In this document: in pieces, positions 869 to 63,869 of the stretch
Layout of the letters: each line of letters starts with the position of its first letter
Numbering within the stretch: position 1 is the stretch's first letter
From: Candidatus Levyibacteriota bacterium
GTDB lineage: Bacteria > Patescibacteriota > Microgenomatia > Levybacterales > UBA12049
Assembly (NCBI GenBank): GCA_003173895.1
Contig: PJMG01000006.1
Location: 2,820-66,819 of the forward strand
Reading direction: 5' to 3'
DNA length: 64,000 nucleotides
Translations under genes and position numbers: made by a program
Notes under the pieces: model-generated
Seen by the model: only the letters and a program-made list of their open reading frames with translations
What the model was told of the DNA's origin: nothing
The model's database searches: none

Positions 869-896
869 TTGCAATATTACATTCAAATGCTATAAT
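869..896 (+). promoter_or_regulatory. sigma-70-type promoter of the sigma-factor gene
   Basis: TTGCAA (869-874), 16-nt spacer, TATAAT (891-896), only 10 nt to ATG 907, no SD. Confidence 0.55.
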
Positions 897-906
897 ATAG
901 GCTCTT

Positions 907-3153
907 ATGAGCTTAGAGATGTTGATTCCTAGACAAAATATAGATGATCCCACTATAAGTGGCTTTTCGTCTCCCGAAAAACTTCCAGAGGGCGTTCAAC
1001 AAACTCTTAATATCCGTGCCCTAACCAGGCAAATAGCAAAAGAAAGAGAAATTAATCTAAGGGGAGGCATGTTACAACAAATTAATGAATTAGCACAAAA
1101 AGCACAAGAATATTTATCTAAAGATCAGTTAGGAAATAAATATTTCTGTGAAGGACTTGCTTCAGTTATAAAACAAACTCTTTATGTTCAAAGTAAAGTA
1201 GAAAACTCTCATTCCTTAAAAGAATTTTCAATAGCAGATAATTTAGAGAATTTAATTAATGCTTATACCATAGAATATAACCAAACATTACAAAATGCTC
1301 AAGCTACTAATATTTTTACTACTACACAATGCCTTATAGTGGCAGAATATGGAGCTTTATATCATGGACCAAAGTTTCTAGATGAATTATTAAAATCTGA
1401 AGGTGCTAAAGATCTTATTTATTCTGATGCTGTTTTCTTTTCTATTGCCCACTGGGTTTCTGATCCTACAACTGCTTTATTAAAATTAAATCAAAAAATG
1501 CATGAATTAAGAAATAGTTATCCTCAAGCTAGCTCTAGAGCTTTATTCGATGCTGCGCGACAACCAAATCGTGCAGAACAAATACTGAATAATTTAATTA
1601 TTGATGTATATGCAAAACAATTTAAATTGGATTTATATATAGTAAAAGATGCTTTTAAAGCTATGCCTACAGAGGCAGCTATAACGTTCTTAAAAGAATT
1701 TAATGAGAGTATTAAATCTTTAAAGACTCTTTATCCTGGTTATGATGAATATATATATAGAAAAATTTTGTCAAAATATAGAGAGAATGTTCAGAAAGTG
1801 TTACAAAACTTACCCACGCAGATCATAAAATTATTAGCTATTTCTAAATATAAGGGACTTTCTAAAGAACTCTTAATTGCTGCTATAGCATATAACTATA
1901 ATAATCCTCAACAATTTCTTGACAACTATCTAGAAAAACACCCTATACGTCAAGAAGAAATAAGTAAAATGCCTACTTTAATTAAATCTATTATCTTAAA
2001 AGAACTTCTTACAGTATCGGAAATAGAATCTTCAGAACTCATAGCTCAAATTTTAACGGAATTAAAAAGGCATAATATTTTTGACCCTGAACAATACAAT
2101 CATAAAATTAGTAACTATTTAAATAATCTTTATCAAAATGGTGTTATCGGTGTTAGACATATACGTCAAAATTTAAATATTTATTTTTTACCTAAAGAAA
2201 ATGAGCTAATTGCAAAAGAAGAATTAATTGAAACTTCAGAATTTCCTACAGAACTTATTACAGAGAATACAGAAAATTCAGAAGAAGTAGAAATGGTAAG
2301 TTCAGAAGAAGCTGAAGATATGTTTAAAAATGATCCTAGTCTGCAGGATGTTAGTGACTCTGAAACTATGTATATACGAGAAGCTACTAAATTGCCACTT
2401 TTAAATCATTCTCAAGAAATAGAATTAGCTAAAAGAATAGAAAAAGGAGATAAAGAAGCGAGAGAATTATTCATAAAAGCAAATATGCGCCTCGTTATCT
2501 CTATAGCTAAAAAATATAGAGGAAGACATTTATCGTTTCTAGATCTCATTCAAGAAGGTAATATAGGATTAATAGAAGCAGTTGAGACCTATGACTGGAG
2601 ACGAGGTTCTAGATTCTCTACGCACGCTACTTGGCTTATTAGACGAGATATTCTATCTGCTTTAAATGATAAATCGAGAATCATACGTATACCAACACAT
2701 ATGATTACTAAAATTAATCGTGTAAATAGAGAACGTAATAGATTAACTCAAGAATTGGGTCATGAACCATCAAATGAGGAATTATCTAAGGAATTAGGCA
2801 TAACATTAGATGCTTTAAACGAAATTGAAGAAGCACAGATTCAAATGTATTCTCTTGATGCTCCTTTAGATGACGAGCCAGATAATTCATTAGGTGATTT
2901 TGTAGAAGATGAAAGAGATGATTATGAAAATGTAGAGACAGATGATATTTCTATGACCATACAAGAAGCATTAGCTATTCTTACAGAGCGAGAGAAACAA
3001 GTTATTATATATAGATTTTATCATAGTAAAAGTTTAATAGAAACAGGAAGAGAATTAGGTGTTGGTCGAGAAAGAGTTAGACAAATAGAAACTACAGCTA
3101 TAAATAAACTTAGATCCCCTAAAGCAATACGTATTTTACAAGAAGCTCGCTAA
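907..3153 (+). CDS. rpoD: RNA polymerase sigma-70 family factor (group 1/2-like) with ~480-aa N-terminal extension
   Basis: C-terminal ~270 aa carry regions 1.2-4.2: [86 protein letters not shown]. Confidence 0.8.
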
Positions 3154-3201
3154 CTTTTCCCTTGCTCCCCTACTTTTCATATGTTAGTCTAGATAAATAG
3201 T

Positions 3202-62426: not shown

Positions 62427-63044
62427 TTAATTAACTCCGTTTTTACCTTCTTTTATCATTATTATTGCGTAAGGTTGATCTTTAATTAAGTTTAATAATT
62501 CTGGATTTTCATAAAAATGAGCGCTACCCGCCTGTAAAATAAGTTTTCTTCTTAAATATCTATATCTGAATTTTCGTAAAGTATCTTTTATAGTAGCATT
62601 GAGTGAATCATTTCGTTGTAGTGCTTTTAAATTCGATTCTTTTTGTTTTTCCAAAGCTATATTTGTTAGATGTAACCTTTCTTGCATTGAAATTCCGAGC
62701 TCTTCTGATGCTGTAGTTGCTGCATTGGATTCTTCTTGTAAAGCGTCAGATTCATCGTATTTTTTTATATCATCCCACCCTATCGTTTTAGTCCCAAATT
62801 TTACTCCAAATTCTCTTCTACTTAATCTCCATGGATATCTTCTTCCTTTTTCGCGCCCTTCAATAGCTAGTAAATGTCCTAAACCAGTATGTTCTTTTAT
62901 TATTCTATTTTCATTTTGAACTGAGTCTGCGTCTTCATGATTAAGTCCAATACAAATAACTCGGGCTTTTTTAAGCGGAACGTTAGCTGAATAAATAGTA
63001 TATGCTTCTTGATTCATAGAGAAAATTTTATCATAGGATTGCAA
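62427..63044 (-). CDS. orphan protein 16: possible Tiki/ChaN/TraB-superfamily fold (weak)
   Basis: ARVICIGLNHEDADSVQNE..LLAIEG and LILQAGSAHFYENPELL resemble the GxxH...E / GxxH(L/F) motif pair of that superfamily; overlaps the upstream gene by 14 nt. Confidence 0.35.
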   Translation of the reverse strand: MQSYDKIFSMNQEAYTIYSANVPLKKARVICIGLNHEDADSVQNENRIIKEHTGLGHLLAIEGREKGRRYPWRLSRREFGVKFGTKTIGWDDIKKYDESDALQEESNAATTASEELGISMQERLHLTNIALEKQKESNLKALQRNDSLNATIKDTLRKFRYRYLRRKLILQAGSAHFYENPELLNLIKDQPYAIIMIKEGKNGVN

Positions 63045-63825
63045 TTGGATTACCTTCTAGATCCACAGGTAGTAAACCTTTTTTAATAAGCAGTTGAGCG
63101 GCAAATCTAAAGCGAGGTTGTAACAATTCGTATAAATATAAAGGAACTACGATAACTTCACAAGATTTTCCATTTGTAAATGTTAATGTATATTTGACAC
63201 TATTGGCTATACTATATTCTCCACGCCTTACCTGTGGTTTAGAAGTATAATTGAGTTTTTGATTTTCCACAGCCATTACTGGAAAGATATAGTAAGGATC
63301 TTCTGGAAAATGGCGTTCTTTGTCAGCTAAATCATATATAAAAGTAGTTAATCTGTTAAAAGGTCCTTTAGATTCACAGGTATACAATTCTGCTCGTTGC
63401 ACATTTTGTATACCTACATGCTTAGACACATGCTTAAAATATGCTTTATGCCAACCTCTTCTTTCTACTAAAAATGCTGTATTAGCCAGATCATGTCTTT
63501 GCCTAGAAGTAAAAGTACCGTTGAGATATGTTTGAACAGTTTCTTCATGAATTTGTTTTTCTTCGTCAGTAAGCTGAGTTAAAATCGCAGCTTCATGAAA
63601 TCCTGGAGCTTTAACATTACATATGGTTCTTATTCCTATATGATTCCCACTTAAATAATATAAGTCTTGTGTATCAGTTTGTATAGGATTATACTCTCTC
63701 TTTCTTCTCATCCCTAGTCGTAGCAGAGTTTCCCCCATAACATTAACTTCTCCTGATTTTGTTTTGAAAGGAGGACGCACATTACCTGATTCCTGATTTC
63801 TAATGAGAAATTCTACTAGTGGCAT
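63031..63825 (-). CDS. orphan protein 17 (264 aa), first gene of a two-gene operon
   Basis: ORF with a leaderless consensus promoter; 14-nt overlap with 62427..63044. Confidence 0.6.
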   Translation of the reverse strand: MPLVEFLIRNQESGNVRPPFKTKSGEVNVMGETLLRLGMRRKREYNPIQTDTQDLYYLSGNHIGIRTICNVKAPGFHEAAILTQLTDEEKQIHEETVQTYLNGTFTSRQRHDLANTAFLVERRGWHKAYFKHVSKHVGIQNVQRAELYTCESKGPFNRLTTFIYDLADKERHFPEDPYYIFPVMAVENQKLNYTSKPQVRRGEYSIANSVKYTLTFTNGKSCEVIVVPLYLYELLQPRFRFAAQLLIKKGLLPVDLEGNPIAIL

Positions 63826-63831
63826 GCAATG

Positions 63832-63869
63832 ATTTTAGGCTATCAATTCAAGATTGTCAATTATAGGAC
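63832..63869 (-). promoter_or_regulatory. leaderless promoter with upstream GTCCTATAA box
   Basis: minus strand GTCCTATAATTGACA (63855-63869), 17-nt spacer, TAAAAT (63832-63837), 6 nt to the ATG. Confidence 0.6.

Follow-up and report, generated by a model that had tools for sequence, protein, structure and literature searches.

In Escherichia coli, leaderless genes such as lambda cI (transcribed from PRM) and the tetR gene of Tn1721 have a sigma-70 promoter whose transcription start site (TSS) is the A of the AUG, and they are translated by a 70S-dependent initiation that does not need a Shine-Dalgarno (SD) sequence. At the scale of whole genomes, such an arrangement has been described as group C of the GeneMarkS-2 classification, in which a Pribnow box lies 6 to 8 nucleotides (nt) from the starts of first operon genes and 25 to 50% of operons are leaderless; this group is typical of Actinobacteria and Deinococcus-Thermus but seldom found among Proteobacteria and Firmicutes (PMC6028130). 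Examples include Mycobacterium tuberculosis and M. smegmatis, Corynebacterium, Streptomyces and Deinococcus deserti. Comparative surveys of non-SD initiation have covered 14 phyla, none of them from the candidate phyla radiation (CPR) (PMC5397173), and an account of CPR ribosomes, which reports a shortened bS1, the loss of uL30 and bL9, and an anti-SD sequence lost only in some Parcubacteria, is silent on leaderless mRNAs (PMC9297842). In full-text literature searches, we found only incidental mentions and no report of leaderless architecture for CPR, Patescibacteria, Saccharibacteria or Microgenomates; the genome tables of GeneMarkS-2 lay outside the scope of these searches, so an earlier classing of CPR genomes in group C is possible. 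In the current study, we analyzed a 64,000-nt stretch of DNA from Candidatus Levyibacteriota bacterium (the window; contig PJMG01000006.1 of assembly GCA_003173895.1), in which what appear to be sigma-70-type promoters stand directly against the start codons of many genes.

The window is densely coding, with a GC content of 31% overall and 29 to 35% throughout. Our gene set comprised the 75 nonoverlapping open reading frames (ORFs) of at least 60 amino acids (aa) obtained by greedy choice, which cover 90% of the window; to avoid hand-picking, each was given a blind start, namely, the first ATG, GTG or TTG of its longest ORF. The distance from the -10 hexamer to the start codon (d, in nt) was tabulated, with 300 dinucleotide-shuffled versions of the upstream regions as the control; a pair was counted where each hexamer matched the promoter consensus at 4 or more of 6 positions and the two together at 9 or more of 12, with A2 and T6 present in the -10 and a spacer of 16 to 18 nt. 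This shuffled control, which the original prediction had proposed, revealed a strong excess in the window at short distances: at a d of 5 to 15, a pair precedes 27 of the 75 genes, compared with 2.95 ± 1.52 in the shuffles (maximum, 8). The excess is found both at a d of 5 to 9 (17 genes; 1.45 expected) and at a d of 10 to 15 (10 genes; 1.74 expected), and it is gone at a d of 16 to 30 (4 genes; 4.13 expected). The commonest distance is exactly 6 nt. As for the individual boxes, exact TATAAT ends 6 to 10 nt before 9 of the 75 blind starts and is scattered elsewhere, and TTGACN ends 29 to 30 nt before 8 of these genes and never at a d below 19 or above 43.

The original prediction was based on a list of 27 genes located by hand. 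When the 60 nt upstream of each was read back, all 27 coordinates had an ATG on the strand given and a TAnnnT-type hexamer at the distance given. A formal rule, which required either a TGn-extended -10 or else a -10 of at least 4/6 with A2 and T6, a -35 of at least 4/6 and a combined match of at least 9/12, was passed by 23 of them. The four weaker sites are 33347 and 60327, which have a good -10 and a poor or misspaced -35; 41051; and 37941, an ORF of 38 aa whose reality is uncertain. Ten more genes that were absent from the list have the same geometry (14724, 14974, 19032, 22605, 40000, 41957, 43366, 43802, 45873 and 54301).

These counts must be weighed against chance, that is, the possibility that DNA of 31% GC is so rich in TTGACA- and TATAAT-like hexamers that any ATG will have a pair nearby. 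Loose promoter-like pairs are indeed no more frequent in the window as a whole than in dinucleotide shuffles (90 versus 99 ± 11, 77 versus 98 ± 9, and 97 versus 95 ± 11), and -10-like hexamers of at least 5/6 are expected in about 6.6 of the 75 genes per 5-nt bin. However, the signal is positional and not one of abundance. When the approach was reversed and a weight matrix for the -35, spacer and -10 was scored at every position of both strands (128 kb), the 20 best sites included 12 that ended 6 to 14 nt ahead of a gene start; for six of these, the distance was exactly 6. With the search confined to intergenic DNA (both strands, matrix score of at least 9), there were 9 hits at a d of 5 to 9, compared with 0.57 expected (p = 2e-9, a 16-fold excess), and 6 at a d of 10 to 15, compared with 0.66; at a d of 16 to 60, the 4 hits were no more than expected (4.3). 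A hypothesis-free count of hexamers ranked TATAAT first among the words ending 4 to 10 nt before starts and TTGACA first at 27 to 33 nt (9 near starts versus 1 elsewhere; p = 1e-12). Nor is the geometry forced by a lack of room, since a d of 6 is kept despite intergenic spacers of 361 nt before glnA, 233 nt before 38057 and 191 nt before 57515. Given that the shuffle and position controls already refute it and that the signal is repeated in independent genomes (see below), we see virtually no prospect that chance accounts for the pattern. Chance was also the refutation that the original prediction had proposed for itself. Judged by abundance, such hexamer pairs are at the level of the shuffles; judged by position, they are far above it, and it is position that the claim concerns.

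The same signal is present in relatives. The best homologues of the glutamine synthetase (GlnA) encoded in the window are, among the 120 matches listed, 85% identical and labelled Patescibacteria group, Roizmanbacteria or Levybacteria, and the nearest glnA loci in species-representative genomes (ca. 75% identical) come from Levybacteria and Daviesbacteria metagenome-assembled genomes (MAGs). These matches point to an uncultured CPR/Patescibacteria bacterium of the Microgenomates group, apparently with no close sequenced relative. An exact look-up of the GlnA protein gave no match, and neither did peptide-pattern scans of genome and metagenome collections based on the sigma factor. We therefore compared 20-kb loci around glnA from other genomes, using blind starts and counting pairs at a d of 5 to 9. 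Such pairs preceded 19 of 140 genes in eight Levy-, Davies- and Roizmanbacteria loci (shuffles, 2.0 ± 1.4), 5 of 83 in Saccharibacteria loci (shuffles, 0.45) and 2 of 98 in Parcubacteria loci (shuffles, 0.9); glnA loci of Nitrospira/Elusimicrobia, Acidobacteria, Armatimonadota, Myxococcota and Planctomycetota had 0 to 3 per 130 to 236 genes. Small as they are, the samples hint that Parcubacteria and Saccharibacteria may differ. In the Microgenomates loci, too, TATAAT heads the de novo hexamers at a d of 4 to 10 (15 versus 11 elsewhere; p = 2e-10), and words of the TGnTATAAT type are enriched. Two closer relatives with independently called genes, L081 and L082, have TATAAT-like boxes 6 to 8 nt before the ATGs of genes for GNAT, YchF, an MFS transporter and others, and a few neighboring genes carry strong GGAGGTGA SD sites. 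In L082, EF-G, GNAT and other first genes have the promoter, while the genes of a ribosomal protein operon are tightly coupled, lack it and have a weak SD or none. These two loci share only glnA with the window, so the other promoters cannot be footprinted by synteny. The architecture had been proposed as a trait of the genome rather than an oddity of a block of orphan genes, and this view is supported, at the level of the lineage, by the excess in independent Microgenomates genomes and by the matching pattern in L081 and L082. It gains also from the inclusion of housekeeping genes within the window, namely, those for the sigma-70 family factor (907), glutamine synthetase (26143) and an hpt-like phosphoribosyltransferase (23953).

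The glnA promoter itself is kept in 15 relatives as TTGAC(A/T), a spacer of 17 to 18 nt and TAnnnT, with no SD. The distances from its -10 to the ATG are 6, 6, 6, 9, 9, 10, 10, 10, 11, 12, 13, 13 or 21 nt; what the relatives have in common is a promoter set against an SD-less start rather than an exact zero-length leader. When the glnA upstream regions were compared (L001 to L004, L008, L010, L016, L030 and L081 to L087), we also observed an AT-rich, palindrome-like motif, ATTAATATTAAT / AATAATATAAT, in the promoter spacer directly after TTGACA (window positions 26150 to 26178, minus strand). It is conserved in many CPR relatives and may be a candidate operator for a nitrogen regulator. Separately, a relative with a GlnA of 84% identity (L082, 9509 to 12439, and L083, 259 to 2697) carries glnA, with a promoter of its own, inserted into the ribosomal protein cluster between rpsJ (S10) and rplC (L3).

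Are these elements promoters at all? One alternative is that the mRNAs are longer and that an AT-rich motif some 10 nt before the ATG acts on them as a non-SD signal, either for ribosome binding or for an unstructured leader, in the manner of the Bacteroidetes-type group B. In its favor, SD sites are rare (about 10% of genes), a T at position -1 and A/T richness are also found before genes without a recognizable promoter, and AT-rich biases at -20 to -10 are not always attributable to Pribnow boxes (Nakagawa et al., PMC5397173). What is found here nevertheless has the composite structure of a promoter: the aligned sites read TTGACA / 17 ± 1 / TGn / TAtaaT. The -35 box contains G and C, is itself rare in the DNA of the window and is placed 17 ± 1 nt from the -10 (9 occurrences of TTGACA at 27 to 33 nt, 1 elsewhere). 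At sites chosen on the hexamers alone, a TG at -15/-14 is present in 10 of 27, compared with a background of 4.3% (p = 1e-7; ca. 9-fold). This extended -10 motif is read by sigma region 3, and the DNA-reading regions of a sigma factor are encoded in the window itself: the gene at 907 to 3153 (plus strand) specifies a sigma-70 family factor of 748 aa with regions 1.2, 2, 3 and 4. The recognizable regions of this protein all lie after residue 487, in the C-terminal third, behind an N-terminal extension of about 480 aa without a Pfam match.

The composite also precedes genes that are not translated. TTGACA-17-CATAAT (-35, spacer length and -10; positions 5696 to 5724, plus strand) ends 12 nt before a DUF3800-IX small RNA (sRNA; Rfam RF02968, 61 bits, 5737 to 5806, plus strand), which is the only Rfam match in the window. 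In a Levybacteria MAG locus (L002, 4995 to 5108), TTGCAA-17-TGtTAGAAT ends 9 nt before the mature 5' end of a tRNA, which would leave a tRNA 5' leader of only about 2 to 3 nt. The element thus seems to serve noncoding genes too, with almost no leader. The motif is, moreover, absent before tightly coupled internal genes (except for a weak, distant pair at 43366, with a d of 15), whereas group B motifs precede all genes (PMC6028130). Taken together, these features mark the sites as sigma-70-type promoters rather than AT-rich ribosome sites, and we regard a ribosome-binding signal as highly unlikely. The DUF3800-IX sRNA, it may be added, is convergent to a DUF3800 protein gene (5809 to 6426, minus strand), with 2 nt separating it from the 3' end of that gene.

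The distances would mean little if the start codons had been miscalled, with the true starts lying downstream and the promoters preceding ordinary leaders. The longest-ORF rule was wrong by 9 to 12 nt for two SD-led genes, whose starts were corrected to downstream ATGs (23315→23306 and 40670→40658). Four longest-ORF GTG or TTG starts (31999, 41087, 44492 and 56531) are likewise better replaced by the promoter-adjacent ATGs of the original prediction (31975, 41051, 44414 and 56495); the TTG starts at 41087 and 56531 are the TTG of a -35 box. Against systematic miscalling, the errors found that shifted starts toward SD sites concerned the SD class, not the promoter class. The 478-aa length of GlnA is shared by most of the 120 homologues listed, which backs its start, and Pfam domains begin at residues 2 to 18 across the proposed proteins: at residue 2 for both RibD_C (44414) and DUF3800 (6426), residue 8 for TrmB (15141) and residue 14 for the ArsR helix-turn-helix domain (41051). 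Genes called independently in relatives show this geometry as well, and we consider miscalled starts an exceedingly improbable explanation.

The genes of the window fall into several classes. The promoter ends 5 to 9 nt before the ATG in 22 genes, 13 of them at exactly 6 nt, and 10 to 16 nt before it in another 10, for which a leader of 3 to 9 nt is implied. These two classes are drawn from the 64 genes that are not tightly coupled; the promoter-proximal total comes to 32 to 34 of 75 genes, or about half of the transcription units. The start codon is ATG in every one of them. No SD of at least 5 nt was found in the transcribed part of any of these 32 to 34 genes, in keeping with the earlier suggestion that the geometry leaves no room for one. 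A strong SD (GGAGGTGA/GGGGGTGA, complementary to the canonical 16S tail) precedes about 8 genes, or some 10% (16913, 23306, 24372, 32308, 40658, 42463, 42956 and 55583). In SD-led genes, the -10 lies only 15 to 20 nt from the start (e.g., TTGACA-17-CATAGT, 20 nt before TTG 16913). No 16S rRNA gene was found when its anti-SD tail was sought in the window and seven related loci; a canonical anti-SD is nonetheless suggested by the GGAGGTGA(T) sites, and by the report of anti-SD loss in a Parcubacteria subgroup only (PMC9297842). The strong-SD genes encode small proteins of stress or detoxification-like type (KGG repeat, LEA/apolipoprotein-like, AHSA1/SRPBCC and glyoxalase-like).

Tightly coupled internal genes form a further class. 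Of the genes no more than 15 nt from a same-strand upstream gene, 11 have neither a promoter pair nor an SD, and 43366 (13 nt) has only the weak pair mentioned above; most internal genes lack an SD. Among the remaining genes, many have a good -10 alone at a d of 12 or less (16714, 33347, 37191, 35086 and 60327). Three genes have a clear promoter at a greater distance (Table 1), and no SD was found in the leaders of 53664 (60 nt) or 774 (52 nt). The general rule seems to be one of minimal 5' untranslated regions (UTRs), either none or just enough for an SD, with few clear exceptions. The original description of the leaderless arrangement as pervasive therefore holds for about half of the transcription units, and does not extend to the genes with a strong SD or to the 11 coupled internal ones. 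The majority of genes look like transcription units of their own, set off by spacers of 40 to 100 nt. Intrinsic-terminator-like hairpins occur at chance levels even so (9 versus 9.1, 9 versus 7.6, and 11 versus 8.5 in shuffles; both strands of positions 1 to 60000), and because they are no commoner than in shuffles, intrinsic terminators were rejected as the separators of short same-strand spacers.

Table 1. Promoters and related features of the window, written as -35 hexamer, spacer length and -10 hexamer (lowercase, n of TGn); "added" marks genes absent from the original list
Gene or feature	Positions	Strand	Elements	nt to ATG	Remarks
Sigma-70 family factor 907	869..909	+	TTGCAA-16-TGcTATAAT	10	Short leader class
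516-aa orphan 6684	6644..6686	+	TTGACG-17-TATACT	11	
9095	9059..9097	+	TTGACA-18-TAGCAT	6	
14724	14722..14760	-	TTGACA-18-CATTAT	6	Added
65-aa ORF 14974	14972..15017	-	TTGACA-17-TATATT	14	Added
TrmB-type regulator 15141	15102..15143	+	TGTACA-17-TATAAT	10	
Deoxynucleoside kinase-like 19032	19030..19068	-	TGaTACATT extended -10	7	Added; weak -35
22605	22603..22646	-	TTTACA-17-TGaTATTTT	12	Added
Phosphoribosyltransferase, hpt-like, 23953	23951..23989	-	TTCATA-18-TGgTATAAT	6	Gene at 23399-23953
Glutamine synthetase 26143	26141..26178	-	TTGACA-17-TGtTAAATT	6	Gene at 24707-26143
GNAT-like 31975	31973..32013	-	TGaTACAAT extended -10	8	Longest ORF would start at GTG 31999
PfkB kinase 33347	33345..33385	-	TTGATT-15-TATAAT	9	Fails formal rule
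38-aa lysine-rich ORF 37941	37939..37976	-	TTGTTC-17-TACAGT	6	Gene itself uncertain
Cupredoxin 38057	38021..38059	+	TTGACA-18-CATACT	6	
40000	39998..40037	-	TTGTAA-17-TAAAAT	8	Added
ArsR-type regulator 41051	41049..41087	-	TTGACA-18-TATATA	6	
41957	41955..41995	-	ATGATA-17-TATAAT	9	Added
DUF1761 43802	43800..43837	-	TTGACA-17-TACATT	6	Added; overlaps 3' end of upstream gene
RibD_C 44414	44412..44450	-	TTCGCA-18-TGcTATATT	6	Domain from residue 2, against longer GTG 44492 ORF
72-aa ORF 44578	44541..44580	+	TTGCTA-17-TATAAT	8	
44838	44803..44840	+	TTGACT-17-TGtTATATT	6	
Divergent pair 45873/45943	45871..45945	-/+	TGtTATGAT (-); TTTACA-18-TGcGATACT (+)	6 (-); 6 (+)	69-nt spacer; 45873 added
49765	49728..49767	+	TTGTAA-17-TGaTATTAT	8	
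50532	50491..50534	+	TTGACA-17-TATCAT	12	Short leader class
51964	51962..52003	-	TTGACA-16-TGcTAAAGT	11	Short leader class
54301	54299..54336	-	TAGAAA-17-TGcTAAAAT	6	Added
54898	54896..54936	-	TTGAAT-17-TATAGT	9	
56495	56493..56532	-	TTGCAT-17 (or TTTGCA-18)-TGtTATTAT	7	
57515	57513..57550	-	TTGACA-17-TGgTAAAGT	6	
59404	59402..59447	-	TTGATA-17-TATACT	14	Short leader class
Cupin 59886	59884..59923	-	TGcTATACT extended -10	7	No -35
60327	60325..60363	-	TAAAAT; -35 TTGTTT (3/6)	7	Fails formal rule
Divergent pair 61696/61792	61694..61794	-/+	TTGACA-17-TACATT (-); perfect TTGACA-17-TATAAT (+)	14 (-); 8 (+)	95-nt spacer
63825	63823..63860	-	TTGACA-17-TAAAAT	6	
SD-led 42956	42946..42976	-	SD GGGAGGTGA	6 (from SD)	Example of counter-class
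543-aa orphan 53664	53725-53753	-	Perfect TTGACA-17-TATAAT	60	Exception with real leader
774	827-855	-	TTGACA-17-TATATT	52	Exception with real leader; inverted repeat TTACAAAAAT..ATTTTTGTAA in leader
26505			TTGAAC-17-TATAAT	41	Exception

In addition to the genes named in Table 1, the window encodes an MFS transporter, a histidine kinase and many ORFs without any Pfam match. Positions 45000 to 58000 form a block of such Pfam-less ORFs (45943, 49765, 50532, 51964, 52033 to 53664, 54898, 56495, 57515 and 57707 to 59404), many of which carry the strongest consensus promoters of the window.

From this geometry, we infer the positions of transcription initiation and the mode of translation as follows. 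In most transcription units, a promoter of the housekeeping sigma-70 type (TTGACA, a spacer of 17 ± 1 nt, in many cases TGn, and TAnnnT) would stand directly against the start codon. In 49 bacteria, the distribution of TSSs is centered 7 bp past the -10, with conservation of a Y-R-Y (pyrimidine-purine-pyrimidine) start element (PMC12641261); where d is 6, that position is occupied by the A of the ATG, which makes leaderless the natural reading for a d of 6 to 9. In about 22 genes, where the -10 ends 6 to 9 nt (mostly 6) before the ATG, transcription would then begin with the A of the start codon, tATG supplying the preferred Y-R-Y element as T(-1)A(+1)T(+2), and the product would be a pppAUG mRNA without a 5' UTR, destined for leaderless translation. 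Leaderless mRNAs engage 70S ribosomes directly and need no SD pairing (summarized in PMC5397173), and by analogy with other bacteria, the 70S ribosome and fMet-tRNA may bind the 5'-terminal AUG in the same manner here. In about 10 genes with the -10 at 10 to 16 nt, there would be a leader of 3 to 9 nt, which is not long enough to hold a functionally spaced SD. For internal operon genes, which begin 0 to 15 nt from the preceding stop codon with neither promoter nor SD, termination-reinitiation is suggested, and in about 10% of genes, a strong GGAGGTGA SD would be carried on a minimal leader of about 12 to 15 nt. The original claim that the TSS falls on or next to the ATG thus seems sound for some 22 genes, in which the A of the ATG is 7 to 10 bp after the -10; the 10 genes with 3- to 9-nt leaders are not leaderless in this sense.

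Alternatively, the promoters may be real while initiation occurs mostly a few nucleotides upstream of the ATG even at a d of 6 to 9, giving mini-leaders of 1 to 9 nt that are translated through an SD-independent 30S pathway requiring only an unstructured, A/U-rich 5' end, and not through 5'-AUG recognition by 70S ribosomes. The 10 genes at a d of 10 to 16 would suit such a scheme, as would the variation of the glnA distance among relatives, with the gene retained; furthermore, the -10-to-TSS distance was reported to be more variable in N. lyticus, the sole CPR species with TSS data (PMC12641261). The mode at a d of 6 is sharp, however (13 of 33 calls and 6 of the top 20 sites), and T(-1)A(+1) at the d = 6 sites is as expected from selection for initiation on A. 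We consider mini-leaders throughout to be unlikely.

A T at -1 is in fact common in general, occurring in 69% of the 75 window starts and in 51% of those in Microgenomates loci (L001 to L004, L008, L011, L032 and L041), compared with about 36% expected. It reaches 80 to 82% in promoter-proximal genes (82% in the class with a d of 5 to 9), compared with 43% in SD-led genes, and the Y-R-Y start element explains this bias only in part.

Several observations weigh against a strictly leaderless interpretation, or against the strength of the signal at single sites. A T at -1 is also found in 64 to 68% of coupled and unassigned genes and hence does not reflect the TSS alone. Of the flagged genes, a third lie at a d of 10 to 16 and so are not strictly leaderless, and the drift of the glnA distance from 6 to 21 nt indicates that a zero-length leader is not strictly selected. 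TTGACA is a strong signal in the window, but the loci of the eight relatives show no enrichment of it. The restriction to ATG is not significant when compared with the rest of the genes (non-ATG starts in 0 of 34 versus 4 of 41; p ≈ 0.08, after correction of the two SD-gene starts). Because loose pairs occur at chance density, individual weak sites (those with a -35 of 3/6 or less: 19032, 31975, 45873, 59886 and 60327) are untrustworthy. Finally, short public contigs with glnA homologues were considered as possible transcripts and rejected; they include upstream genes and hence are genomic. Even with these points taken into account, an architecture in which promoters abut start codons and produce leaderless or mini-leader mRNAs is, in our judgment, very probably the best explanation of the data.

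The calling of gene starts in CPR metagenome bins depends on the initiation signal that is assumed. Four of the longest-ORF starts in the window were wrong, with a TTG or GTG in or upstream of the promoter being chosen, which implies that gene finders without a leaderless model will misannotate N termini in this lineage. To our knowledge, CPR bacteria have reduced ribosomes and are not yet culturable alone. If about half of the transcription units are translated without a leader or an SD, as is probable, this constrains how CPR ribosomes recruit mRNA. It would also provide a design rule for expression constructs, i.e., a consensus promoter placed 6 nt before the ATG. The leaderless map, on which arguments about the evolution of translation initiation draw, is extended to a deep-branching lineage of low GC content. 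A bolder proposal, which we offer tentatively and would not ourselves rely on, is that SD-independent initiation is the default in Microgenomates and perhaps in the wider CPR, making this the third major bacterial lineage of its kind after Actinobacteria and Deinococcus-Thermus. Under such a regime, nearly every unit would be leaderless or near-leaderless from full-consensus sigma-70 promoters, internal genes would be translated by termination-reinitiation, and the SD would be kept for a small, possibly stress-related set (KGG, LEA-like, AHSA1/SRPBCC and glyoxalase-like). If true, this would fit the reduced CPR ribosome, with its shorter bS1 and its loss of uL30 and bL9 (PMC9297842), and would be relevant to the view of leaderless initiation as the ancestral mode. 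As the mechanism is already known, what is gained is of taxonomic and practical, not conceptual, value.

Compared with described systems, the window most resembles group C: its -10 boxes lie about 6 to 8 nt from the start of first genes, no SD is found there, roughly a quarter or more of operons are affected, and the use of the SD by a second class of genes is shared in part (22 genes at a d of 5 to 9, and about 8 with a strong SD). Unlike in group C, most internal genes of the window lack an SD. The genomic settings differ as well, in that the group C lineages are high-GC Actinobacteria and Deinococcus-Thermus and the window is 31% GC and of CPR/Microgenomates origin. Leaderless promoters of the high-GC group C lineages usually show only a TANNNT -10, whereas the full TTGACA -35 and the TG extended -10 are prominent in the window. 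Like the window, genomes of the Bacteroidetes-type group B are AT-rich, contain very few SD sites and carry an A/T-rich motif near the start codon. However, the group B motif is located on the mRNA and precedes all genes, including internal ones (PMC6028130), whereas that of the window is a two-box sigma-70 promoter of fixed spacing, found in front of RNA genes as well but missing from coupled genes. In the archaeal group D (Haloferax and Sulfolobus), a promoter likewise stands at a fixed distance from the start, and most transcripts have no 5' UTR; there, however, a TATA/BRE element about 26 nt upstream and archaeal initiation factors are used, in place of the bacterial -35 and -10. Lambda cI and Tn1721 tetR share the sigma-70 promoter geometry of the window and would share its predicted initiation mode; these are isolated cases in an SD-dominated genome, whereas in the window such genes make up the commonest class. 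What the window presents is a known architecture in a new lineage, with two local peculiarities: the full -35/-10 consensus at low GC and very little use of the SD, even within operons.

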